From positions 1-33,620 of IMG/VR virus record IMGVR_UViG_3300043449_000866: a stretch of DNA of 33,620 nucleotides. One strand, written 5' to 3'. The stretch comes from a virus. The position numbers and the translations under genes are program-made. This document shows positions 4,369 through 33,620 of this stretch, in pieces. Under the pieces are notes generated by a model, which worked only from the letters and a program-made list of their open reading frames with translations, searched no databases and was not told where the DNA came from. The number at the start of each line of letters is the position of its first letter. The stretch's first letter is position 1.

Positions 4369-5358
4369 ATGGCTAATACAGCATTCGCACCTAACAATGC
4401 AACCACAGTAACCACAGCGGCTAACTTCATTCCTGAAATTTGGAGTGATGAAATTGTTGCCAGTTACAAGAAGAACCTTGTTCTAGCGAACTTGGTTATG
4501 AAGATGAACTTCAAGGGCAAGAAGGGTGACACAGTTCACATTCCAGCCCCTGGTCGTGGCAACGCTTCAGCAAAGACTAAAACAGACGCAGTTACCTTAA
4601 TTGTTGACACGGCTGATGAAGTTCAAGTTCTGATTAACAAGCACTATGAATATAGCCGCTTGATCGAGGACATCGCAGAAGCACAAGCATTGAACTCAAT
4701 GCGTAACTTCTACACCTCTGACGCAGGTTATGCCTTGGCTAAACAAGTCGATACAGACTTGATTCAGTTGGGTCGTTCTGCCAATGGCGGTACTGCTGAT
4801 AGCGCACGTTACACAGCTGGTTTTGTTGGTGGCGATGGTACAACAACCTTTGACTACACAGCTAACACCAACACTGGTAACGCTTCTGCTCTGACTGATT
4901 CGGCTATTCGTCGTACTATTCAGCGTTTGGATGACAACGACACTCCTATGGATGGTCGCTTCTTCATCATTCCTCCTTCAAGCCGTAATACGTTGATGGG
5001 TCTTGCCCGTTACACAGAACAGGCTTTTGTGGGTGATGGTAATGCTATCCGCAATGGTGAAATCGGTAACCTTTATGGTATCCCCGTGTTCACTTCTAGC
5101 AATGCTGACCATGCTTCTGCAACTGCCGCTTATCCAGCTAGCGGTACTTCTATTGGTCGTGTCTGCTTGATGGGTCACAAGGACTCTATGGTTCTGGTTG
5201 AGCAAGTTGGTATCCGTTCACAAGTTCAGTACAAACAAGAGTACCTCGCTACTCTGTTTACTTCTGACACTTTGTATGGTGTTGCCGCTTTGCGTAAAGC
5301 AGCTACTTCTGGTGCGGCTACGTCCTCATCTATGTTTGCCTTGGTTGTTCCTTCTTAA
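4369..5358 (+). CDS. Major capsid protein
   Basis: 329 aa. The N-terminus reads ...AANFIPEIWSDEIV..., typical of HK97-fold capsid proteins of small podoviruses. A GGAG RBS precedes it and a strong terminator follows. Confidence 0.85.
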   Translation: MANTAFAPNNATTVTTAANFIPEIWSDEIVASYKKNLVLANLVMKMNFKGKKGDTVHIPAPGRGNASAKTKTDAVTLIVDTADEVQVLINKHYEYSRLIEDIAEAQALNSMRNFYTSDAGYALAKQVDTDLIQLGRSANGGTADSARYTAGFVGGDGTTTFDYTANTNTGNASALTDSAIRRTIQRLDDNDTPMDGRFFIIPPSSRNTLMGLARYTEQAFVGDGNAIRNGEIGNLYGIPVFTSSNADHASATAAYPASGTSIGRVCLMGHKDSMVLVEQVGIRSQVQYKQEYLATLFTSDTLYGVAALRKAATSGAATSSSMFALVVPS

Positions 5359-5372
5359 TTGATACAACCTTT

Positions 5373-5399
5373 CCCTCACCTTCGGGTGGGGGATTTTTT
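5373..5399 (+). terminator. Rho-independent terminator after the capsid gene
   Basis: ccctcacc-ttcg-ggtggggg forms an 8-bp stem with one G-U pair, followed by atttttt. Confidence 0.75.
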
Positions 5400-5417
5400 A
5401 CATTAAGGAGATTTATT

Positions 5418-5744
5418 ATGGCAGCAGCAACAGCAGTTGTTTCCCGCAGAGGAAATGACCAGTTCCGTGGTTTGTTTACAGACACTTGGGACGTTTCTTG
5501 TACTCTTGATAGCGCATCAGTATCTAATGGAGCTACCGCTACAGATACAGTCGCAGTTCCAGGCGTTTTGTTGGGTGACATGGTTATTGGTATGTCAATT
5601 GGTGTGTCTGAGGCTGGTCTTATGCGTAGAGCATACGTTTCAGCCTCTGGTACTGTGACTATCGTTACTATTAACCCTACAGCAGCACCTATTGATATTG
5701 CAGCTACAACACTGCAACTTATCATTGGTCGTCCAGTAAACTAA
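5418..5744 (+). CDS. Small virion protein, possibly capsid decoration (108 aa)
   Basis: AAGGAG lies 7 nt before the ATG. The gene is bracketed by two terminators directly after the capsid gene, and its composition is beta-rich. The antisense ORF 5330-5725 was rejected. Confidence 0.6.
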   Translation: MAAATAVVSRRGNDQFRGLFTDTWDVSCTLDSASVSNGATATDTVAVPGVLLGDMVIGMSIGVSEAGLMRRAYVSASGTVTIVTINPTAAPIDIAATTLQLIIGRPVN

Positions 5745-5745
5745 T

Positions 5746-5776
5746 AAAAGGGGGCTTGTACCCCCCTTTTTTTTTG
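5746..5776 (+). terminator. Rho-independent terminator
   Basis: aaaaggggg-cttgta-cccccctttttttttt: a G/C stem followed by a long T tract. Confidence 0.75.
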
Positions 5777-5784
5777 GAACTATT

Positions 5785-5976
5785 ATGGCTACATTCAAGT
5801 GCTTACAAAGTGGAAACACAGTATCTTTTACCTATCAACACGATATTGATAGCATGAAAAGACATGAAGGATATGTCAGAATTGATGAAGTTGAAACTTC
5901 TAAAAAGCCTTTAATATCATCTGAAACAAAGCCTGTTAAGAAGATGGGTCGTCCAAGGAAGGTCGAAAATGTCTGA
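5785..5976 (+). CDS. Hypothetical protein (63 aa)
   Basis: ORF with a basic C-terminus (KKMGRPRK); overlaps the next gene by 8 nt. Confidence 0.5.
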   Translation: MATFKCLQSGNTVSFTYQHDIDSMKRHEGYVRIDEVETSKKPLISSETKPVKKMGRPRKVENV

Positions 5977-6175
5977 GATTGATCCACGAGAATTTGGTAA
6001 GCTAGAAGCCCAAGTTGAGGCTTTACAAGCAGAAGTCCATGCACTTCGCCAAGATATTAAAACGCTTTTGGAGATGGCAAACAAGTCCAAAGGCGGTATG
6101 TTTGTTGGTATGGCTATCGCCTCTTTTATTGGTGGTCTTATCACTTTTATTGCTGACAGAGTGTTTACAAAATGA
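5969..6175 (+). CDS. Coiled-coil protein with a C-terminal transmembrane helix (68 aa)
   Basis: LEAQVEALQAEVHALRQDIK followed by the hydrophobic stretch GGMFVGMAIASFIGGLITFIA. Confidence 0.55.
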   Translation: MSEIDPREFGKLEAQVEALQAEVHALRQDIKTLLEMANKSKGGMFVGMAIASFIGGLITFIADRVFTK

Positions 6176-6582
6176 AACTCTTATCTGGCCTTACTTGTCC
6201 GATAGCCACTCAGGATGTGTCTGTCAACCTGAAGAATCGCAACAATGCGTTCAAGAAGTTTGGCTATGGCCCACCTAATCCTGAAGAATCTAATGATTCG
6301 TTTTGGCTAAAGAAGGCCAAGATGTACAACGCTCCCACAGAAAATATCAAAGGTATGCGCTGTGGAAACTGTGCCGCCTTTATCCAAACACCAAATATGA
6401 TGGCTTGCATCACGGGTGGATTGGAAAAAGACGAGGGAGAGAATGAGTTGTCCTATGACGAAGAATTTGTCAAAGCGGCTGATTTAGGATATTGTGATTT
6501 GTTTCAGTTTACCTGTGCTGCGGCAAGAACTTGTGATGCTTGGAAATCAGGTGGCCCAATAACCAAGGAGAAATCGAAATGA
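6172..6582 (+). CDS. Hypothetical Cys-containing protein (136 aa)
   Basis: ATGA coupling to the upstream gene. Motifs FGYGPPNPEE and CGNCAAF. Confidence 0.6.
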   Translation: MKLLSGLTCPIATQDVSVNLKNRNNAFKKFGYGPPNPEESNDSFWLKKAKMYNAPTENIKGMRCGNCAAFIQTPNMMACITGGLEKDEGENELSYDEEFVKAADLGYCDLFQFTCAAARTCDAWKSGGPITKEKSK

Positions 6583-6746
6583 TGTATGGAAAAACCAAGA
6601 CTTCTAGCCCTAAAGCGGCTAAAAAAGATACCAAAAAAGGTATGCCATTGGCAATTATGATTGCTGTTGGTAAGCCAAGAGCTATGCCTACCCGTGGTGG
6701 TCGCACAGCTACTAACATGATGAAAAAGTCTGGACGAGGTAAATAA
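6579..6746 (+). CDS. Small basic protein (55 aa)
   Basis: AAGGAG at 6565-6570 and ATG at 6579, which overlaps the upstream stop (ATGA). Lys/Arg/Gly-rich. The track ORF 6540-6746 was trimmed to this start. Confidence 0.55.
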   Translation: MMYGKTKTSSPKAAKKDTKKGMPLAIMIAVGKPRAMPTRGGRTATNMMKKSGRGK

Positions 6747-7030
6747 TGTCTTCTTTAACTTCTCCCGTTACGCTCCTGAGTGCCGTTGTTGCAACTGGTG
6801 CTTCTAAAGCAGTTCAAGCCGATGCTGGTCAACCCGCATTCCTTCAGGTTGTAGGCATTACGAATGCTACTGTTGCTTTTCAGGGCAGTTTGGATGGCAC
6901 AACTTACGCAACTATTGGTACTGCTTTGACTGCTGATGGCATTATTACTATTGCCAATGCGCCTAAGTATTTGCGAGCTAATTGCACCGCCTATACATCT
7001 GGAACTATCACTGCAAAGGTTTTGTACTGA
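6746..7030 (+). CDS. Small beta-rich virion protein (94 aa)
   Basis: TAATG coupling; Ala/Thr/Gly-rich sequence ending TSGTITAKVLY. Confidence 0.55.
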   Translation: MSSLTSPVTLLSAVVATGASKAVQADAGQPAFLQVVGITNATVAFQGSLDGTTYATIGTALTADGIITIANAPKYLRANCTAYTSGTITAKVLY

Positions 7031-7031
7031 T

Positions 7032-7202
7032 ATGAAAAAGACTAAAGCAGAAGCCAAAATCAGCAAAGTTATGAAAGAGTATGGTGCGGGTAAACTGCAC
7101 TCTGGGTCTAAGAAAGGCCCTGCCGTAACTTCTAAGAAACAAGCCATTGCTATCGCTTTATCTGAAGCTGGTATGACTAAAAAGATGCCTAAGAAGAAAT
7201 GA
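7032..7202 (+). CDS. Small basic protein (56 aa) with the KVMKEY..GKLHSG...KKQAIAIALSEAG motif
   Basis: ATG at 7032, within track ORF 6936-7202. The motif is a widespread small conserved domain of unknown function. Confidence 0.6.
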   Translation: MKKTKAEAKISKVMKEYGAGKLHSGSKKGPAVTSKKQAIAIALSEAGMTKKMPKKK

Positions 7203-7372
7203 AGTCTAAGGTCAACCAAGCAAAGGTTTACACCAAGCCTACCATGCGTAAAGCCTTGTTTGAGAAGATTAAGGCGGGTGGCTCAGGAGGTGATCCTGGT
7301 GAATGGTCTGCCCGTAAAGCACAACTTCTTGCTAAAGAATACAAGAAAAAAGGTGGCGGTTATCGTGACTAA
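7199..7372 (+). CDS. Small basic protein (57 aa), not in the ORF track
   Basis: ATGA overlap at 7199-7202. Translates MKSKVNQAKVYTKPTMRKALFEKIKAGGSGGDPGEWSARKAQLLAKEYKKKGGGYRD. The WSARKAQ...GGGY motif recurs in small phage and bacterial proteins. Confidence 0.55.
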   Translation: MKSKVNQAKVYTKPTMRKALFEKIKAGGSGGDPGEWSARKAQLLAKEYKKKGGGYRD

Positions 7373-7793
7373 GGTATGTAAATTGTGCGAACAAGAAAAG
7401 CCTGTTACAGATTTTTATTTGTTTCATGATAAGTGGAGCAATAAAAAATACAGTAGTTCCCGTTGCAAGCCTTGCCATCAACAACATAAGCGTGATAGTG
7501 AAACAACGCCAAAAAATAGAAAAACAGAAAAACTACAGTTGCGTTATGGTTTGACCTATGAACAATGGGAGCAAATGCGAGAGGCAGAGAATTTTTCTTG
7601 CATGATTTGTGGCATTTCTGAAGAAGAACTAGGGAAAAGGCTTGATGTTGACCACTGCCATCTGTCTGGTAAAGTGAGGGGTGTGTTATGCAATCCATGC
7701 AATACAACTCTTGGTCATGCAAGGGACAATATTAAAATACTTGAAGCAGCAGCACAATACTTAAAAGATAATTTTGGTGGGTACAAGACATGA
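7365..7793 (+). CDS. Recombination endonuclease VII family protein (HNH-type junction-resolving nuclease)
   Basis: CKLC...CKPC followed by LDVDHCHLSGKVRGVLCNPCNTTLGHA, the endonuclease VII signature. The proposed GTG start at 7365 overlaps the upstream stop; the track ORF begins at 7260 inside the upstream gene. Confidence 0.8.
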   Translation: MTKVCKLCEQEKPVTDFYLFHDKWSNKKYSSSRCKPCHQQHKRDSETTPKNRKTEKLQLRYGLTYEQWEQMREAENFSCMICGISEEELGKRLDVDHCHLSGKVRGVLCNPCNTTLGHARDNIKILEAAAQYLKDNFGGYKT

Positions 7794-8023
7794 AAAATCC
7801 TCAACAGTCCCTGAAAGATTGGTCTAAACAGAATTGGCGAACCAAGTCTGGTAAACCTTCATCTGTTACGGGTGAGAGGTATTTGCCAGAGGCGGCTATC
7901 AAGTCTTTGTCGGCTAAAGAGTATGCGGCAACCACCAAAGCCAAACGTGAAGGCACAAAGGCTGGTAAACAGTTTGTTGCCCAACCTAAAGCAATTGCAA
8001 AGAAAACAGCAAAATATAGATGA
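7790..8023 (+). CDS. Small basic protein (77 aa)
   Basis: ATGA coupling. Motif LKDWSKQNWRTKSGKPS...GERYLP. Confidence 0.6.
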   Translation: MKNPQQSLKDWSKQNWRTKSGKPSSVTGERYLPEAAIKSLSAKEYAATTKAKREGTKAGKQFVAQPKAIAKKTAKYR

Positions 8024-8030
8024 GGTAGAT

Positions 8031-8324
8031 ATGAAGAGTCCTGCTTGGCAAACAAAAGAAGGAAAAAACCCCAAGGGGGGCTTGAATGCCAAAGGTAGAG
8101 CATCGTATAATGCAGAAACAGGTGGCAATTTAAAACCACCAGTCAAGTCGGGAGATAACCCTCGTAGGGCATCCTTTTTAGCACGAATGGGCAATATGCC
8201 TGGCGCTGAGATGAAAGATGGAAAGCCTACCCGACTTTTACTTTCTCTTAGAGCTTGGGGCGCAACGTCCAAGGAAGACGCTAAAGCTAAAGCTAAAGCG
8301 ATCTCTAAGAGGAATATGAAGTGA
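8031..8324 (+). CDS. Small basic protein (97 aa)
   Basis: GAGGT RBS and ATG at 8031. Motif AWQTKEGKNPKGGLNAKGRASY...RRASFLARM...KPTRLLLSLRAW. The track ORF 7872-8324 was trimmed to this start. Confidence 0.6.
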   Translation: MKSPAWQTKEGKNPKGGLNAKGRASYNAETGGNLKPPVKSGDNPRRASFLARMGNMPGAEMKDGKPTRLLLSLRAWGATSKEDAKAKAKAISKRNMK

Positions 8325-8656
8325 GACCAGTATCTGTTGGAGTTAGCCCTGCTGCGGCAACATTGACTACTGTTTACACAGTACCAACGGGTTACTACGC
8401 CAAATTTACTGTCATGTATATCCACAATACTGGTGGATCGACAAAGCACATCACAGTTCAATGGTATGACGCTAGTTCAGCAACTACTTATGACATTCTT
8501 GTTCAATACGACTTTACTGCTAAAGCCTATCTTCAGTTTGATGGCAATGCTTATATCGTTTTAGAAGAAGGCGATAAGATTCAAATTACGACTCAAAGTG
8601 CAAGTACATTCAGTTTTATTGCCACATTTGAGGTTCAAGGAGCACAACGAACATGA
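8321..8656 (+). CDS. Virion structural protein (111 aa), function unknown
   Basis: GTGA coupling; beta-rich sequence within the morphogenesis block. Confidence 0.55.
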   Translation: MRPVSVGVSPAAATLTTVYTVPTGYYAKFTVMYIHNTGGSTKHITVQWYDASSATTYDILVQYDFTAKAYLQFDGNAYIVLEEGDKIQITTQSASTFSFIATFEVQGAQRT

Positions 8657-9297
8657 CCTACTTAGAACTTGTTAACGATGTGTTAGTTCGCTTGCGTGAA
8701 AGCACAGTATCTACTGTTGGCGAAACAATCTACTCCTCTTTGATTGGCAAGTTTGTCAATGATGCCAAGCGTCAGATTGAAGATACATACACTTGGAATG
8801 TCTTAAATCAGACAGTTACAGTTACGACTGCTGCCAATACAAGTTCATACTCTTTAACTGGTACTGGTCAGAAGTTTCGTATTGCTGAAGCCCTTAATAC
8901 TACAAGCAATATTGTATTGAGCAACATTGCAGTTTCAGACATGAACCGCAAGTTGAGTTTTGGCACACCAGCTACAGGCATTCCTGCACAATATTGCTTC
9001 AATGGCGCAGATTCTAGTGGTGACACAAAAGTTGATTTGTATCCTATTCCTTCTGGCGTATTTACTTTAAAGTTTGAAGTGACTATTCCACAAGCTAATT
9101 TGACTGCTGATGGTACTTCAGTCAAAGTTTTAGACTACTTGGTGACTCAAAGTGCCTATGCTCGTGCTTTGATTGAGCGTGGCGAAGATGGTGGAACAAA
9201 CTCTACCGAGGCTTATGCTCTGTTTAAAGGAATGCTCTCTGACGCTATTGCGATGGAAAGCACTCGTTATCCTGAAGACAACTTTGTGGCAATCTAA
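8653..9297 (+). CDS. Putative head-to-tail adaptor or tail tubular A-like protein
   Basis: 214 aa. The N-terminal helix YLELVNDVLVRLRE...DAKRQIEDTYTWNVL resembles adaptor proteins. Assigned mainly from position before the large nozzle-like protein. Confidence 0.4.
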   Translation: MTYLELVNDVLVRLRESTVSTVGETIYSSLIGKFVNDAKRQIEDTYTWNVLNQTVTVTTAANTSSYSLTGTGQKFRIAEALNTTSNIVLSNIAVSDMNRKLSFGTPATGIPAQYCFNGADSSGDTKVDLYPIPSGVFTLKFEVTIPQANLTADGTSVKVLDYLVTQSAYARALIERGEDGGTNSTEAYALFKGMLSDAIAMESTRYPEDNFVAI

Positions 9298-22349: not shown

Positions 22350-22586
22350 TTAAAAAGGCAAAGATTCGTCATCAAAACTTGCCTTCTTAGGGGCTTGTTT
22401 AGGCTGATAGTCTTCTTTAGGTGATACTGCTAAACCCATGAATTTGCCTGACTTTCCCTCTTTAATCCATGCAGATAGCCAGTAATCCTGACCACCCACT
22501 GTAATATTTCCTTTGTAATCAGGATGTTTCTCTGATTCCTTTTTGTCGTTTTTGAACAAAACGCCACTGTTATCTTTCTTTTCCAT
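22350..22586 (-). CDS. Short single-stranded-DNA-binding-like protein with an SSB-type acidic C-terminal tip
   Basis: 78 aa ending FDDESLPF (compare the bacterial SSB tip DDDIPF). The core reads HPDYKGNITVGG.DYWLSAWIKEGKSGKFMGLAV. It lies immediately downstream of the annealing protein gene. Confidence 0.5.
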   Translation of the reverse strand: MEKKDNSGVLFKNDKKESEKHPDYKGNITVGGQDYWLSAWIKEGKSGKFMGLAVSPKEDYQPKQAPKKASFDDESLPF

Positions 22587-23248
22587 TACATTTCCTTCGC
22601 TTTCTTTAACGCACTTCTTACTTTACTGGGTAGGAGTGTCCACAGAGCAATCTTTTGTTGATCGTCTAGGTTCTCTCCCTCTAACTTAACCCAAGCTGCC
22701 TTGGGATCACCCTGTTCGCAAGTAGCAATCAATTCAATTGCTAATTCCTCTAGGTATCGTAATTCCTCCATAGGAATATTATCCATTGCACCCTGAGTAG
22801 GCGTAATCACTACTGATCTGCCCTCTTCTGGCAAGTCTTCACCGCCATACAAATACATCCCGAGTCCATGTAGGGCTAGAGCTTTGGTCATGCACCTCAT
22901 AATGGCTGTATTGACTGCAAAAGCATCTGGATTGGGGATTGCCTTGTTCCGATAGTCCATCACAGGCAATTGGCAAGTCATGGGCTTTTTAAACATGGTC
23001 ACTGTAACGAACACCATTGCTGTGCCGTTGATGTCCATGAAGCACTTGCCATCAAACATCTCTACCTTGTAAGTAGCGTCTGCGTCAGCTTTAAGGGCTT
23101 CTGCCCATGCCCAAGCCCATGATAGGTAGGATAGGCCATTCTTTTTCTCAACGTGCTCATTGACGTTCTTTGCCAACATCTTCGCAATGAGGTCTTTGCG
23201 TTCAACCAATAAGCCTGGTTGGTTGGGATCATTTGTGTAAGTACTCAT
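22586..23248 (-). CDS. Rad52/Sak-family single-strand annealing protein
   Basis: GLSYLSWAWAWAEALK...TAIMRCMTKALALHGLGMYLY matches the Sak/DUF1071 signature. AAAGGAG lies 5 nt before the ATG at 23248. Confidence 0.8.
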   Translation of the reverse strand: MSTYTNDPNQPGLLVERKDLIAKMLAKNVNEHVEKKNGLSYLSWAWAWAEALKADADATYKVEMFDGKCFMDINGTAMVFVTVTMFKKPMTCQLPVMDYRNKAIPNPDAFAVNTAIMRCMTKALALHGLGMYLYGGEDLPEEGRSVVITPTQGAMDNIPMEELRYLEELAIELIATCEQGDPKAAWVKLEGENLDDQQKIALWTLLPSKVRSALKKAKEM

Positions 23249-23249
23249 A

Positions 23250-23438
23250 TTAACTCCTTTGATTCTCATCTAACTCTTGTTGAATAATCTCTTTTTGTTG
23301 TTCAGGATATAAATCCTTGAACTCGATAAAGTCTGCCTCTTGGCAACAAACTATTTTATCCCCTTTGATTGTCAAACAATAGGGGCAGTAGTGTATGTCT
23401 GAGAACTCTGACACATAGGTTTGGAATAGTGTTTTCAA
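23250..23438 (-). CDS. Small Cys-containing protein (62 aa)
   Basis: CPYC...CC motif; tightly packed in the operon. Confidence 0.5.
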   Translation of the reverse strand: MKTLFQTYVSEFSDIHYCPYCLTIKGDKIVCCQEADFIEFKDLYPEQQKEIIQQELDENQRS

Positions 23439-24472: not shown

Positions 24473-24694
24473 TTTCTTTCATGGCTTCCGTACTCCACAC
24501 GAAAGTAGTGCATCTGCATGGATGGCTTGGAAGAAAACACCGACATCAGGAAACACCCCCTGTTTGCCGACCAGCGTTGGTTAAGCGACTGGTAAAGCAT
24601 TTGGTACATGGTGGAACAAGGCCAAATGTATAAGCGAATTAACTCGTCATGCGCACTTGGGGCGTTTTGTATTTTAGTTAACAGGAGTCAATAT

Positions 24695-25141
24695 ATGAAT
24701 ACCATAATGCTTGGAGAAGGTCGGATAGAAACCCCTCTATCCACCCTTGGAGAACCTATGTCTAAAGAAAACAACATGGATAACTTTGACAGATTCTGGG
24801 AGACTTGGCCTAAATCATTTAGAAAAGGCGGTAAGTCTGCCTGTAGAGTGAAATGGAAGAAGTTTTACTGTGATACCTGTGCAGATCAGGTCATCAAACA
24901 TATTGAGTGGATGAAAACAACCGATGCTTGGAGAAAAGACGATGGTGCTTTCATTCCCGCACCTTTGGTCTATCTGAATCAACAGAGATGGGATGGGGCT
25001 GAGATTCCTGAATCGTTCGGGATCAAAAAAGAAACTGGAATTGATCCTGCATTGGCAAAGATTGAGGCTGACAACAAAAAAGCCGTTCCTATGCCTGAAC
25101 ACATTAGGCAAGCAATGGCTCAATTAAGGAGCAAAGCATGA
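24695..25141 (+). CDS. Conserved phage protein (148 aa), function unknown
   Basis: AGGAG lies 7 nt before the ATG at 24695. The motifs FDRFWETWPK...GGKSACRVKW and FIPAPLVYLNQQRWDG recur in phage early regions. ATGA-coupled to the next gene. Confidence 0.55.
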   Translation: MNTIMLGEGRIETPLSTLGEPMSKENNMDNFDRFWETWPKSFRKGGKSACRVKWKKFYCDTCADQVIKHIEWMKTTDAWRKDDGAFIPAPLVYLNQQRWDGAEIPESFGIKKETGIDPALAKIEADNKKAVPMPEHIRQAMAQLRSKA

Positions 25142-25878
25142 TCCACTATCACGGCTTGCCAATAACTCCATCTACAGCCGCTGTCAAAGCAATTGAAAAT
25201 GGTCATGCGTTTGTTTCGTTTGCTCACTCTGACCAGCTTTCAACAGCAATTGAGGTGTGTCAGTCTTTCGCCATAGATAATGGAGCATTCTCTGCCTGGC
25301 GATCTGGCAATCCAATCCAAGATTGGCAATCTTTCTACGATTGGTCACTTAATCTCAAAAAAGTACCTTCTTGCGACTTTGCAGTAATTCCTGACGTTAT
25401 TAATGGAACTGAAGCAGACAACGATGCTTTGCTGAAAGATTGCCCGCTGCCGACATGGTTTGGCGCACCAGTTTGGCATATGCATGAATCTTTAGAGAGA
25501 CTTGAACAACTTGCAAATACTTATGTTCGGGTCTGCATTGGTAGTTCTGGGGAGTTTTCTACAGTAGGAACGTCAAACTGGTGGGTCAAGATGAGTCAAG
25601 CCATGAGAGTCATTTGTGATGACATGGGAAGACCTGCTTGCAAACTGCATGGTTTAAGGATGCTAGACCCTGCAATCTTTACCAAATTACCATTTTCATC
25701 AGCAGATAGCACCAATATTGGCAGAAATGTTGGCATTGATGTGCATTGGAAGCATGGCAATTATTTACCTCCTACCAAAGAGGCAAGAGCGCAAGTCATG
25801 CGTTCTAGGATCGAGGCATTTAATGCACCTTCACAATGGAATTTTTATCAACCAATGGAGCAAGAAACACTTTTATGA
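25138..25878 (+). CDS. dpdA: DpdA-like (tRNA-guanine transglycosylase superfamily) DNA 7-deazaguanine transglycosylase, putative
   Basis: 246 aa with AIDNGAFSAW (compare the TGT DSGGFQ motif), VWHMHE, CIGSSGE, KLHGLRML and PFSSADSTN. Its context, next to a YhhQ-like precursor transporter, supports the call. Recognised by eye only. Confidence 0.55.
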   Translation: MIHYHGLPITPSTAAVKAIENGHAFVSFAHSDQLSTAIEVCQSFAIDNGAFSAWRSGNPIQDWQSFYDWSLNLKKVPSCDFAVIPDVINGTEADNDALLKDCPLPTWFGAPVWHMHESLERLEQLANTYVRVCIGSSGEFSTVGTSNWWVKMSQAMRVICDDMGRPACKLHGLRMLDPAIFTKLPFSSADSTNIGRNVGIDVHWKHGNYLPPTKEARAQVMRSRIEAFNAPSQWNFYQPMEQETLL

Positions 25879-26117
25879 ACAAATACACAACTAAGTTTAT
25901 TGCGTTATGCCCAATAAACAACAAACAAATAGTTTATCAATTGGAAATTAAACATTCTGAGCAAATAATGATTGAGAAAATCCTAGAAGAAGTAGGCAAA
26001 TACACATCAGCATTCCATGAGCGAATAGCAGATGAATTGTTTACATTGTTTGGTGGTGAGCAGACTTTGACTGCCAATCATCATGGCGTTGTTATTCAAA
26101 CAGAAAGAAAATTATGA
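25875..26117 (+). CDS. Small QueF-like single-domain protein (80 aa, possible T-fold), putative
   Basis: ATGA overlap with the dpdA-like stop. FIALCP...(29 aa)...FHERIADELF parallels the QueF pattern FTSLCP...FHEDCMN, though spaced 5 residues closer. The QueF NADPH motif is not evident. Confidence 0.35.
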   Translation: MNKYTTKFIALCPINNKQIVYQLEIKHSEQIMIEKILEEVGKYTSAFHERIADELFTLFGGEQTLTANHHGVVIQTERKL

Positions 26118-26596
26118 TTTTTGCTTTAATTGCTTATGCCGTGGCAATGATTGCCGCAAACCTTTTGGTGGCGACATTCGGCCCATCAGTAACTGCAATC
26201 AATGCCTTTTTACTAATTGGACTTGATCTGACTTTAAGAGATTGGCTTCATTTCAGGCTCAAAACTTGGCAAATGGGTGGCTTGATTGTTGGAACTGGCT
26301 TAATCACCTACGCTTTAAACCCTGCTTCGGGAATGATTGCAGTAGCTTCTGCGGTGTCATTCTTGGCGGCTTCCATAGTTGATTGGGCTATTTTTGTAAA
26401 AACCACAGGCTCATGGATTAAACGAGCAAATGTTTCAAATACTGCTGGTGCTGCCGTTGACTCGTTACTTTTCCCAACGATTGCATTTGGTGCTTTGATG
26501 CCTGAGATTGTTGCGCTTCAATTTGTAGCCAAGGTTTCAGGCGGTGCGGTTTGGTCTTATGTACTCGAAAAGAAACTAAAAAATGTCCCATTATGA
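26114..26596 (+). CDS. yhhQ: YhhQ/VUT-family (DUF165) membrane protein, putative preQ0/preQ1 transporter
   Basis: 160 aa and polytopic. FLLIGLDLTLRDWL, ASAVSFLAASIVDWAIF and SNTAGAAVDSLLFPTIAF parallel conserved YhhQ segments (ATDLTVR; ASFMAY..QILDV.VF; SN..D...FF.IAF). Confidence 0.7.
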   Translation: MIFALIAYAVAMIAANLLVATFGPSVTAINAFLLIGLDLTLRDWLHFRLKTWQMGGLIVGTGLITYALNPASGMIAVASAVSFLAASIVDWAIFVKTTGSWIKRANVSNTAGAAVDSLLFPTIAFGALMPEIVALQFVAKVSGGAVWSYVLEKKLKNVPL

Positions 26597-26690: not shown

Positions 26691-26889
26691 GCGCAATAAA
26701 GAAAACCCTGGTGACAGAGTAATCCTCGAACAAGCAGAGGCAAGGGAACTCTACCGCACTTGGGAAACAAACAAAGATAGAGACTTTGTGCGTGGCAGAT
26801 TGGAGAGAGCCGAAAGAATCTATGGTACGGGTGCTAGAGACAGAATCCGAGAGTTTATGAACAGAATTAAAGATGGGACACTTCTATGA
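26677..26889 (+). CDS. Hypothetical Arg-rich protein (70 aa)
   Basis: ORF with a GTG start, ATGA-coupled to rusA. Confidence 0.45.
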   Translation: MIWSRRNKENPGDRVILEQAEARELYRTWETNKDRDFVRGRLERAERIYGTGARDRIREFMNRIKDGTLL

Positions 26890-27314
26890 GCTTCATGGTG
26901 ACTTTTATGGTTGAAGGAACACCAGTACCCAAGGGCAGACCAAGGTTTGCTAGAAGGGGCAAATTTGTATCAACTTACAGTCCTAAGACTACTGTTGACT
27001 ACGAAACCAAGGTCAGCGAGGCGGCACAAGTGGCAATGGGTAGTAGCGAACCCCTTGAAACCCCTGTGGGAGCGTACATCTACATCACATTGCCGATTCC
27101 CGCCAGTTACAGTAAAAAGCGAACGCAAGCCTGTTTATCAGGAGAGGAACGCCCAATAAAGAAAAGCGACATAGACAATTATTGCAAAGCGGTATTTGAT
27201 GGGATGAACGGGATTGTTTTCCTAGATGACAGTCAGATTGTTTCACTGCATTCAACAAAGGTCTACGGGACTGTTGGCATGGTTGAAGTAATGGTGAAAG
27301 AAGAGCTTATCTAA
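26886..27314 (+). CDS. rusA: RusA-family Holliday junction resolvase
   Basis: GTPVPKGRPRFARRG...YSPKTTVDYE...KKSDIDNYCKAVFDGMNGIVFLDDSQIVSLHSTKVY matches the RusA signature. Confidence 0.85.
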   Translation: MSFMVTFMVEGTPVPKGRPRFARRGKFVSTYSPKTTVDYETKVSEAAQVAMGSSEPLETPVGAYIYITLPIPASYSKKRTQACLSGEERPIKKSDIDNYCKAVFDGMNGIVFLDDSQIVSLHSTKVYGTVGMVEVMVKEELI

Positions 27315-32105: not shown

Positions 32106-32474
32106 ATGGAACAATTGAAAAGAGGAAGAGGAAGACCAAAGGGGTCAGTCAAGATGACCATACAGAGGTTTGCTGACAATCCGCCTCTTGTACTACCTAA
32201 GACAGACCATCAACGTCTCAAGGAGCTTAAGGAGCTGATGATCAGGAGTGGTGGTAAGGATGTGGCTCAGAAGGTTATTGAGATAGCCCTTAATGATGAC
32301 CATCCACACCAGTTGGTAGCACTAAAGATGTGTCTTGATAGGACTCTACCTGTTTCTTTGTTTGAAAAGGATAAGAGTCAGAGAAGTGCCGTAACCATCA
32401 ATATCACTGGTTTGGGACAAGAACCGACCATAATTGATGAACAACCTGAAGACGTAGAGGCTAAATATGGCTGA
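32106..32474 (+). CDS. terS: Terminase small subunit (putative)
   Basis: 122 aa, AAGGAG RBS, N-terminal basic RGRGRPKGS DNA-binding-like arm, and a stop overlapping the terL start. Confidence 0.55.
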   Translation: MEQLKRGRGRPKGSVKMTIQRFADNPPLVLPKTDHQRLKELKELMIRSGGKDVAQKVIEIALNDDHPHQLVALKMCLDRTLPVSLFEKDKSQRSAVTINITGLGQEPTIIDEQPEDVEAKYG

Positions 32475-33620
32475 TCTGAACTTCTCTCTGCTTCCTTGGC
32501 AACAAGAGGTATTTAAGGATACGACTAGGTTCAAGGTTGTGGCTGCTGGTCGTAGGTGTGGTAAGTCACGGATGGCGGCAGTTACCCTACTGATTGAAGG
32601 ACTCAAGTGTCCACAAGGCTCTGCAGTTCTTTACGTCTCCCCCACTATGGGGCAGAGTCGTCAAATCATTTGGGATTTATTGCTAGACCTTGGAAGAGAG
32701 GTTATTCAGAGCAGTCATGTGAACAACCTAGACATTACCCTGATAAACGGGGCTAGGATATACGTCCGTGGTGCTGATAGACCAGATACCCTTCGTGGCG
32801 TTAGCTTGACCTATGCCGTTCTAGATGAGGTTGCCGACATTAAGCCCGAGGCATGGGAACAGGTCATCAGGGCCAGTTTGTCTGATAAACGGGGTAGAGC
32901 ACTCTTTATTGGCACTCCAAAGGGTAGAAATTGGTTCTACGATACCTTCAAACTTGGTGAGTCAGAGGATGATCCTGATTGGAAGTCTTGGCACTTTACC
33001 ACTGCTGATAACCCCTTGATTGACCAAAAAGAGATAGATTCCGCTAAAAAGACCCTAAGTTCCTTCGCTTTTAAGCAAGAGTTTATGGCTTCTTTCACCA
33101 ATGCGGGTTCTGACATCTTCAAGGAAGAGTGGATCAAATACGGGGTAGAGCCTAGTTATGGAAGCTACTTCATCGCTGTTGACCTTGCGGGATTCGAGGA
33201 AGTTGCCAAACAAGCCGCTAATTCTAAGAAGCGTCTTGACGAATCTGCTATCTCAATAGTTAAGGTCACAGATGATGGAAAGTGGTTTGTTAAGAAAATT
33301 GAACACGGCAGATGGGACATTCGAGAGACTGCTGCCAAGATTCTGATGGCTATTAGGGACTACCGCCCTTTAAGCGTGGGAATAGAGAGGGGGGCGTTAA
33401 AGAACGCTGTTTTGCCTTATCTGAGTGACCTTATGAGAAAGAACAACACCTTTGCTCATATCGTAGATTTGACTCATGGGAATAGAAAAAAAGCAGACAG
33501 AATCATCTGGGCTTTACAAGGTAGGTTCGAGCATGGCAGAATTGTGTTAAATTCGGAAGAAGATTGGGATGAGTTTGTAGACCAGTTAATCCTGTTCCCT
33601 GCTCAAGGAGTCCATGATGA
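32467..33620 (+). CDS. terL: Terminase large subunit, N-terminal part (ATPase domain and most of the nuclease domain); runs off the window end and continues at base 128
   Basis: ATG at 32467 overlaps the stop of the upstream ORF (ATGGCTGA). I translated the frame by hand with no stop up to 33620. Walker A-like VVAAGRRCGKS, Walker B-like LTYAVLDEV, and nuclease-domain FIAVDLAG. The track omits it because no stop lies inside the window. Confidence 0.9.
   Translation, partial: MADLNFSLLPWQQEVFKDTTRFKVVAAGRRCGKSRMAAVTLLIEGLKCPQGSAVLYVSPTMGQSRQIIWDLLLDLGREVIQSSHVNNLDITLINGARIYVRGADRPDTLRGVSLTYAVLDEVADIKPEAWEQVIRASLSDKRGRALFIGTPKGRNWFYDTFKLGESEDDPDWKSWHFTTADNPLIDQKEIDSAKKTLSSFAFKQEFMASFTNAGSDIFKEEWIKYGVEPSYGSYFIAVDLAGFEEVAKQAANSKKRLDESAISIVKVTDDGKWFVKKIEHGRWDIRETAAKILMAIRDYRPLSVGIERGALKNAVLPYLSDLMRKNNTFAHIVDLTHGNRKKADRIIWALQGRFEHGRIVLNSEEDWDEFVDQLILFPAQGVHD
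33494..33620. repeat. Terminal direct repeat copy 2, identical to 1-127
   Basis: Same 127-nt string as the window start. Position p at the left end equals p+33493. Confidence 0.95.

Follow-up and report, generated by a model that had tools for sequence, protein, structure and literature searches.

How do bacteriophages that encode a DNA transglycosylase of the DpdA family, but no pathway for its 7-deazaguanine substrate, acquire and process the base? The question is raised by three adjacent genes of IMG/VR virus record IMGVR_UViG_3300043449_000866, analysed here over its whole length of 33,620 nucleotides (the window). Modification of DNA with 7-deazaguanines is a major counter-defence of phages, which bacteria counter in turn with glycosylases and type IV enzymes. 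Phages with DpdA and without a precursor pathway form the largest group of DpdA phages and have been functionally unexplained since 2019. The locus encodes a DpdA-family protein (gene 1), an 80-amino-acid (aa) protein with the tunnelling fold (T-fold; gene 2) and a miniature membrane protein of the VUT/YhhQ family (gene 3). The trio probably constitutes a compact, precursor-dependent module for 7-deazaguanine modification of DNA, expressed together with the replication genes of the phage. The starting points for this reading are the family assignments, the fold of gene 2, the absence of genes for de novo synthesis of the precursor and the strong linkage of the three genes. The features concerned are the following.

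25138-25878, + strand: gene 1, DpdA family, 246 aa (PHROG 887)
25276-25290, + strand: DNGAF motif, residues 47-51 of gene 1, with D47, G49, A50 and F51 invariant
25696-25710, + strand: SSADS motif, residues 187-191 of gene 1, with S188, D190 and S191 invariant
25875-26117, + strand: gene 2, minimal T-fold protein similar to QueF-Like, 80 aa (AlphaFold2 (AF2) model, Foldseek)
25908-25910, + strand: Cys12 of gene 2, conserved
26016-26021, + strand: His48-Glu49 of gene 2, conserved
26114-26596, + strand: gene 3, miniature VUT/YhhQ-family membrane protein, 160 aa (Pfam Vut_1)
24608-25141, + strand: upstream open reading frame (ORF) resembling a replication initiator, 177 aa (PHROG 9474/270 'replication initiation protein', E 1.3e-15)

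A previous reading of the DNA, made from the sequence only, had described three translationally coupled genes, and the ATGA overlaps between each start codon and the preceding stop are indeed present at 25138, 25875 and 26114. The first of them couples gene 1 to the replication-initiator-like ORF, so that four genes are chained; that ORF is context and has no part in the chemistry. For gene 2, an alternative start (ATG at 25836) would give a protein of 93 aa instead of the 80 aa counted from 25875.

Recurrent linkage of the three genes

Linkage was assessed in 80 IMG/VR loci that encode a homologue of gene 2 (42-98% identity). A DpdA-family gene is directly adjacent on the same strand in 78 of them and a VUT gene is also present in 44, in four gene orders (DpdA>T-fold>VUT, DpdA>T-fold, T-fold>DpdA and T-fold>VUT>DpdA). 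Genes for FolE, QueD, QueE and QueC like those of phage CAjan occur within 6 kb in none of the 80. Two loci have no adjacent DpdA gene. One is truncated at a contig end; the other (L060, IMGVR_UViG_3300045972_000372, T-fold gene at 5809-6237) is the sole evaluable viral locus without a DpdA gene within 6 kb.

Cultured phages that are unrelated to one another carry the same combinations: T-fold>DpdA followed by a C5-methylase gene in Pseudomonas phage Epa33, DpdA>T-fold in Microcystis phage Mae-JY30, VUT>DpdA in Pectobacterium phage PEAT2 and DpdA>VUT in Acinetobacter phage AB3P2, the full genome annotation of which contains no Que synthesis gene. The methylase of Epa33 is a C-5 cytosine DNA methylase of 696 aa (4985-7075) encoded directly after the T-fold>DpdA pair, and Epa33 thus clusters two different DNA-modification functions. 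Close relatives of gene 1 (73% identity) are found in the order DpdA>VUT without a T-fold gene. Among 62 DpdA loci of bacterial genomes, a T-fold gene occurs in 14, a VUT gene in 18 and both in 2. The prophages concerned belong to Acidovorax, Variovorax, Pseudomonas, Achromobacter, Comamonas, Janthinobacterium and Solirubrobacterales, and further carriers are freshwater metagenome-assembled genomes. About half of the related prophage DpdA genes have neither a T-fold nor a VUT neighbour; neither partner is therefore essential to the enzyme, and the module consists of a DpdA core with two optional partners.

Gene fusions provide a second line of evidence. One of them (P0206) joins a Vut_1 domain to the T-fold, with a DpdA gene directly downstream through an ATGA overlap. 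In the other (P0183), found in two samples, a nucleoside 2-deoxyribosyltransferase domain (Nuc_deoxyrib_tr) is fused to the T-fold, and the fusion gene adjoins a DpdA gene. Since both fusion partners are base-supplying, the T-fold protein is placed at the stage of the free base. A contig with the second fusion (Logan SRR29078251; 1178-1675, 5677-6696) also encodes a protein with a Mom domain (PF25680), which belongs to a DNA adenine modification family, and a Gad2-like protein adjoins the DpdA/T-fold pair there.

Could such genes be unrelated morons that happen to lie together in a variable early region? Temperate phages do have mosaic early and nin-like regions, and the partnerless half of the related DpdA genes would fit this explanation. 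It is nevertheless hardly credible: DpdA stands beside the T-fold gene in several orders, whether the phage infects Pseudomonas, Microcystis or an uncultured freshwater host, the two domain fusions beside DpdA genes are independent, and a single evaluable locus departs from the rule. Linkage in 78 of 80 loci together with the fusions effectively refutes incidental adjacency, and the proposal of the sequence-only reading that the trio is a functional module is supported by this recurrent adjacency and by the fusions.

Family and fold of the three proteins

Gene 1 matches PHROG 887, 'queuine tRNA-ribosyltransferase', with an E-value of 2e-69. Homology to the DpdA of CAjan, an enzyme validated by experiment, is evident from BLASTP (E 2e-10, 26% identity over 152 aa), in which the SADS region aligns with 'SCDSS' of that enzyme, and a hidden Markov model (HMM) of the gene 1 family recovers CAjan DpdA at E 7.6e-14. 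When its AF2 model was compared with BFVD by Foldseek, the matches were phage proteins annotated 'queuine tRNA-ribosyltransferase' (probability 1.0, TM-score 0.5-0.62). The suggestion that gene 1 is DpdA-like, with DNGAF and SSADS motifs, has thus been borne out.

Homologues of gene 1 number 6407 in a large protein collection at E≤1e-5, and 105 phage records match. The closest cultured relative is in Acinetobacter phage AB3P2 (63% identity), and the lambdoid or P22-like temperate phages BTP1, SPN3UB and SfI have homologues of 48-51% identity. The DpdA of Salmonella phage 7-11 is in the same family (HMM E 7e-70). As Hutinet et al. 2019 counted 7-11 among the 'DpdA-only' phages, the clade falls within that group (PMC6884629), and by its sequence relationships gene 1 is a member of the 'singleton DpdA' group of temperate and gammaproteobacterial phages.

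In an alignment of 13 diverse members, CAjan DpdA included, the invariant residues are D47, G49, A50, F51, P111, H114, G135, H171, P185, S188, D190 and S191. In bacterial DpdA, Asp95 (acid/base), Phe99 (stacking) and Asp256 (nucleophile) are essential, and they are invariant in tRNA-guanine transglycosylase (TGT) and DpdA (PMC10164549). A catalytic Asp, a Phe four residues further on and a second Asp are all present in gene 1 and, judging by motif and spacing, D47 and F51 would be the equivalents of Asp95 and Phe99, and D190 that of Asp256. For the base-recognition residues of bacterial DpdA, Asp130 and His181, possible counterparts in gene 1 are the near-invariant D86 and the invariant H114 and H171. 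No match of gene 1 was found in Pfam, including the TGT family PF01702, or in NCBIfam. The validated CAjan DpdA likewise has no Pfam match, which makes this criterion non-discriminating for phage DpdAs.

Gene 3 was expected to be a polytopic membrane protein of the VUT/YhhQ family, and this holds. It exceeds the threshold of Pfam Vut_1 (PF02592; 36.5 bits for a cutoff of 27.2, E 8e-9, model positions 5-140 of 152) and matches PHROG 4899 (E 8e-34) and the 159-aa 'preQ0 transporter' gp41 of CAjan (E 2e-7). A profile of its phage homologues aligns with residues 21-164 of E. coli YhhQ (hhalign probability 80%, E 1.3e-5). By hydropathy, gene 3 has ∼6 hydrophobic segments; lysine and arginine are concentrated in the loops at 41-54 and 95-110, and the C-terminus is basic as well. 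From this pattern a topology with both termini inside, and the C-terminus cytoplasmic, is predicted. Gene 3 is best described as a member of the YhhQ family, not an equivalog, and as a putative importer of 7-deazaguanine bases. Of the profile comparisons proposed by the sequence-only reading, those of gene 1 with PHROG 887 and of gene 3 with Vut_1 were thus positive, whereas those of gene 1 with Pfam TGT and of gene 2 with QueF profiles were negative.

Gene 2 is the most distinctive of the three. It has no match in Pfam or NCBIfam and belongs to PHROG 37496, of 'unknown function'. Its AF2 model has a mean predicted local distance difference test (pLDDT) score of 95.6 and the beta-beta-alpha-alpha-beta-beta topology of the T-fold, with strands at residues 2-11, 18-27, 62-69 and 72-78 and helices at 33-40 and 48-59. 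In a Foldseek search of the PDB, the top 13 matches are archaeosine synthase QueF-Like (QueF-L; 5jyx/5k0p), with a probability of 1.0 and a query-normalised TM-score of 0.65-0.72. GTP cyclohydrolase I, V. cholerae QueF (4iqi) and GCYH-IB rank below; the top 18 are all T-fold proteins, and PTPS, also of this fold, stands at rank 20. Together the matches span the T-fold superfamily, to the architecture of which gene 2 therefore belongs.

An exhaustive profile search yielded 339 representative clusters of the gene 2 family (50% identity, E≤1e-3), mostly of ∼80-85 aa; motif counts cover 150 representatives. C12 and E49 never vary across 67 diverse homologues; P13, H48, E34 and D53 are almost as constant, with H48 kept in at least 90% of the sequences. 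The motif C[PVI] is present in 144 of the 150 representatives, most of which have a spacing of 35-39 residues between the Cys and the His. A scan of a genome collection with a single narrow pattern from the gene 2 alignment returned no relative. When gene 2 is aligned with B. subtilis QueF by hhalign, C12 falls on Cys55 and F-H48-E49 on F-His96-Glu97. The His-Glu pair at the start of helix 2 of QueF (His96-Glu97 in B. subtilis) anchors the substrate. Cys55 is the thioimide nucleophile and the counterpart of Cys21 in QueF-L of P. calidifontis (PMC5485725). The NADPH motif of QueF, E(S/L)K(S/A)hK(L/Y)(Y/F/W), is absent from gene 2 and from all 150 representatives; the family is therefore not to be filed as QueF reductase, and a role of gene 2 as NADPH-dependent preQ0 reductase was rejected. 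The earlier description of gene 2 as QueF-like is correct at the level of fold and active site, and its model resembles QueF-L rather than QueF, in a separate and smaller family.

Precursor supply and proposed mechanism

The supply of preQ0 (7-cyano-7-deazaguanine) has to be considered for the whole genome, which is complete as previously claimed. Positions 1-127 and 33494-33620 of the window form an exact direct repeat of 127 bp; such identical ends are what a circular or terminally redundant genome leaves in an assembly and do not constitute a biological repeat. Removal of this overlap leaves 33,493 unique bp with 43% G+C. In agreement with the sequence-only reading, which recognised no FolE, QueD, QueE or QueC, no match to GTP cyclohydrolase I, PTPS/QueD, QueE, QueC or QueF turned up when another 48 ORFs were scanned with Pfam, and tblastn of the FolE, QueD, QueE and QueC proteins of CAjan against the window gave nothing better than E 1.5. 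In CAjan, DpdA is needed for the formation of dPreQ0, the deoxynucleoside with preQ0 as its base, and host-derived preQ0 is still used, at a ∼12-fold lower level of modification, when folE or queC of the phage is deleted (PMC7544227).

The favoured mechanism, that of a precursor-dependent module, would proceed as follows. The mini-VUT protein would import a 7-deazaguanine base, most likely preQ0, across the inner membrane and top up the supply of the host. The T-fold protein, presumably a homo-oligomer like other T-fold proteins, would bind preQ0, with Glu49 anchoring the 2-amino-4-oxo edge and Cys12 attacking the nitrile to form a covalent thioimide, by analogy with QueF and QueF-L. The latter is known to form a stable thioimide with free preQ0 (PMC5485725). 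As it has no NADPH site, the T-fold protein would not reduce preQ0. It could hold the base, hand it over and shield it from host QueF, or it could convert the nitrile, around the insertion step, into the amidine G+ with ammonia or the amide 7-amido-7-deazaguanine (ADG) with water. DpdA, as its homology suggests, would exchange guanines of the phage DNA for this base in a double displacement of the TGT type, in which Asp190 would be the nucleophile and Asp47 the acid/base. A partial and motif-specific replacement of G would result, blunting restriction enzymes.

Within this scheme it is tentatively proposed that gene 2 founds a new class of minimal T-fold proteins, 'preQ0 handlers' that specifically serve DNA transglycosylases, either as carrier or as enzyme. 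The carrier may capture preQ0 at the membrane as a covalent thioimide, withhold it from host QueF and channel it to DpdA. The enzyme may make G+, ADG or an unseen DNA base by a route independent of ArcS, Gat-QueC, QueF-L and DpdC.

The main rival, kept alive by the structural kinship of gene 2 to QueF-L, is conversion after insertion. DpdA would insert preQ0, made by the host or imported, and the T-fold protein would convert dPreQ0 in DNA into dG+ with free ammonia; this parallels the action of archaeal QueF-L on preQ0-tRNA and would lead to an archaeosine-type end product as in phage 9g, with the transporter as an optional booster. The nearest solved structures are those of an amidinotransferase, QueF-L, in which the NADPH motif is missing as it is in the gene 2 family, and QueF-L turns over only the thioimide of the polynucleotide-bound base, not the adduct of the free base (PMC5485725). 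Moreover, EcoRI is blocked by dG+ and not by dPreQ0 (PMC6884629), a difference that would account for the selection of a tailoring step, and adjacency of the T-fold gene to DpdA is independent of VUT (78 and 44 of the 80 loci, respectively). Several features of the T-fold protein nevertheless make this route unlikely. The family is mostly acidic (median isoelectric point 6.2, net charge -2), a weak argument against direct binding of DNA, and with 80 aa gene 2 is ∼25 residues shorter than QueF-L, which leaves it little surface with which to bind DNA or flip a base. It would be odd to find a DNA-tailoring enzyme attached to a transporter C-terminus or joined with a deoxyribosyltransferase-like domain. 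Furthermore, all phage QueF homologues recognised earlier are true reductases, and none aligns with QueF-L (PMC10516641).

Several results weigh against a 7-deazaguanine module of the kind favoured here. The AF2 model of gene 1 alternates beta and alpha elements with only moderate confidence (pLDDT 76), and its Foldseek matches in the PDB are generic TIM barrels (TM-score ∼0.4) with no TGT among them, so that they are not taken as evidence of a TGT fold. Searches of gene 1 against PDB sequences, by phmmer and with the 13-sequence profile, found nothing; this route is uninformative because CAjan DpdA matches no PDB sequence either. The link of gene 2 to QueF and QueF-L is structural, with weak scores at the sequence level: the hhalign probability with B. 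subtilis QueF is only 12%, a low value attributable to a template that was a single sequence, and the gene 2 profile retrieved only chance Nup54 matches from PDB sequences. Gene 3 scores far below the YhhQ equivalog model NF008406 (15.7 bits for a cutoff of 252), and its substrate is therefore deduced from context only. Deletion of the yhhQ gene of CAjan leaves modification unaffected (PMC7544227), since CAjan makes its own preQ0. The preQ0 used by the present phage may come from salvage or equally from de novo supply by the host. To these points are added the partnerless half of the related DpdA genes, and the two DpdA-only phages that have been assayed: 7-11 contained ∼0.02% of G as dADG and Orion none (PMC6884629). 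The singleton clade may accordingly be weak, highly site-specific or functionally diverged.

The last of these possibilities amounts to a different explanation, in which a diverged DpdA of the singleton clade uses another base, acts on RNA or tRNA, or serves as a glycosylase-type anti-defence enzyme; bulk DNA would carry no 7-deazaguanine, and the T-fold and VUT proteins would handle some other purine- or pterin-like metabolite. The trace modification in 7-11, from the same family, and its absence in Orion fit this view, and a possible functional divergence of singleton DpdAs was raised by Hutinet et al. (PMC6884629). It also agrees with the lack of a Pfam TGT match and of a specific TGT structural match in the PDB for gene 1, with VUT-family substrates that are broader than preQ0 and with the low score of gene 3 on the YhhQ equivalog model. 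It is rather improbable all the same, given that the catalytic Asp, Phe and Asp do not vary and also occur in the validated DpdA of CAjan, and that gene 2 keeps exactly the Cys and His-Glu of QueF and QueF-L, which would be hard to explain for another metabolite. No tRNA gene was found in the phage genome, which speaks against a tRNA target, and the low modification of 7-11 fits the lack of a precursor-supply partner there, no T-fold or VUT gene being found within the first 50 kb scanned.

Genome context and comparison with known systems

Downstream of the trio lies a RusA resolvase gene (26886-27314, + strand), and with the replication-initiator-like ORF upstream this places the trio in an early block of replication and recombination genes. 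The module is also flanked, on the side opposite to RusA, by a gene for a Sak-type single-strand annealing protein (22586-23269, - strand). No integrase was found among the ORFs scanned, and a search for promoters and terminators between 23.4 and 27.5 kb gave nothing above shuffled expectation. The genome has no nucleotide-level match among 50,697 phage records.

Elsewhere in the genome, the large terminase subunit (718 aa) is encoded across the circular junction (32458-33620 into 1-1118). It is interrupted by an intein of ∼300 residues, inserted at the conserved nuclease motif 'GVHDD|...|CDSL'. The intein starts with 'CFIANT...' and ends with '...VLVHN' followed by Cys; the Pfam domains Hint, Vint and Intein_splicing match the ORF at 51-1121. 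Among the structural genes, an ORF of 177 aa (7260-7793, + strand) has a C-terminal Endonuclease VII domain (PF02945, E 2e-23) and is possibly a free-standing homing endonuclease. It lies upstream of an SU10-type adaptor gene (8653-9297, + strand), and DUF6321 is matched at 7872-8324 (+ strand, E 6e-24). A match to an SU10/P22-like portal was obtained elsewhere within 1-19.6 kb; together, the DUF6321, adaptor and portal matches suggest a podovirus-like virion module.

Part of what the locus displays has been described before. DpdA-only phages, the idea of a host or exogenous precursor and phage homologues of YhhQ are already published (PMC6884629, PMC7544227), so that the novelty does not lie in the transporter; RefSeq labels the pair of PEAT2 'VUT family protein' and 'queuine tRNA-ribosyltransferase'. 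No description of a mini T-fold partner similar to QueF-L was found in the literature, and in a 2023 survey no phage QueF sequence aligned with QueF-L (PMC10516641). The new element is this mini T-fold partner, widespread and a near-obligate neighbour of DpdA, a new small protein family with a Cys predicted to act in covalent catalysis. Part of the singleton-DpdA group thus carries a tightly linked T-fold protein of 80 residues, and often a miniature VUT protein as well, from which a concrete and testable model emerges for how DpdA-only phages acquire or process their base. If the T-fold protein makes G+, ADG or a new base, it would be a new enzyme of deazapurine chemistry; as a carrier, it would represent a new viral hijack of a host metabolite pool. 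Either would explain what singleton-DpdA phages and prophages do. Carriers suitable for tests are phages Epa33 and Mae-JY30 and prophages in isolates of Acidovorax, Variovorax, Pseudomonas, Comamonas, Janthinobacterium and Massilia.

Among known systems, the phages CAjan and 9g (DpdA1; Hutinet et al. 2019, Kot et al. 2020) have a homologous transglycosylase with the same DxGxF and xxDS motifs, and the CAjan cluster includes a VUT/YhhQ-like gene of ∼159 aa that is homologous to gene 3. The presumed purpose, a modification of G against restriction, is the same. However, CAjan and 9g, in which 25-30% of G is modified, encode FolE, QueD, QueE and QueC (or Gat-QueC), while the phage described here encodes none of these enzymes, and identity between CAjan DpdA and gene 1 reaches only ∼26% over 152 aa. 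CAjan has no convincing T-fold homologue. Its gp43, a 62-aa ORF between queC and queE (5909-6097 of the retrieved locus), was considered as a relative and rejected as a probable chance match (tblastn E 0.005, hhalign probability 17%); the similarity covers the N-terminal half of the T-fold protein (window 25902-25994) and is worth a sensitive check.

The DpdA-only phages 7-11, BTP1, SPN3UB and SfI (group 3 of Hutinet et al. 2019) share the DpdA clade and the lack of a preQ0 pathway; gene 1 is 49-51% identical to its homologues in BTP1 and SPN3UB. In BTP1, and within the 50 kb scanned of 7-11, DpdA stands alone, whereas here it is coupled to the T-fold and VUT genes. Use of host preQ0, or its uptake, was proposed for DpdA-only phages, some of which carry YhhQ (Hutinet et al. 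2019, PMC6884629).

For gene 2, the best structural match is archaeal QueF-L (Pyrobaculum calidifontis, 5jyx/5k0p), a unimodular T-fold protein in which, likewise, the Cys in the catalytic position lies where strand 1 ends and the NADPH motif is missing. QueF-L is longer (∼110 aa, against 80 aa), identity is 15-18% and there is no significant sequence-profile match. Moreover, QueF-L acts on tRNA, whereas gene 2 is encoded beside a DNA transglycosylase, is acidic and belongs to a family found in fusions with transporter and deoxyribosyltransferase-like domains. Bacterial QueF (B. subtilis YkvM, 4f8b; V. cholerae, 4iqi) shares the T-fold, and its 'F..(L)CP' Cys and 'FHE' align with gene 2, which is half the size of unimodular QueF. 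The NADPH motif absent from gene 2 is kept by all known phage QueFs (PMC10516641). Phage QueF reductases such as those of phiSM and VH7D are grouped with bacterial QueF in this comparison.

The counterpart of gene 3 is E. coli YhhQ (COG1738/VUT), which Zallot et al. in 2017 reportedly identified as an importer of preQ0 and preQ1. Both proteins have Arg-Asp after the second transmembrane segment, an Ala-Ser...Asp segment and a Ser...Asp-Ser...Phe segment; with 160 aa against 221 aa, gene 3 lacks a loop insert and the C-terminal ∼55 residues of YhhQ.

Finally, the Dpd system of Salmonella Montevideo is a host restriction-modification island, not a phage system. Bacterial DpdA needs the DpdB ATPase, and no homologue of DpdB or DpdC was recognised in the phage. 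In Dpd, DpdA inserts preQ0 and a separate enzyme, DpdC, turns the nitrile in DNA into the amide (PMC10164549), a two-step logic that could, by analogy, be paralleled by DpdA and the T-fold protein.

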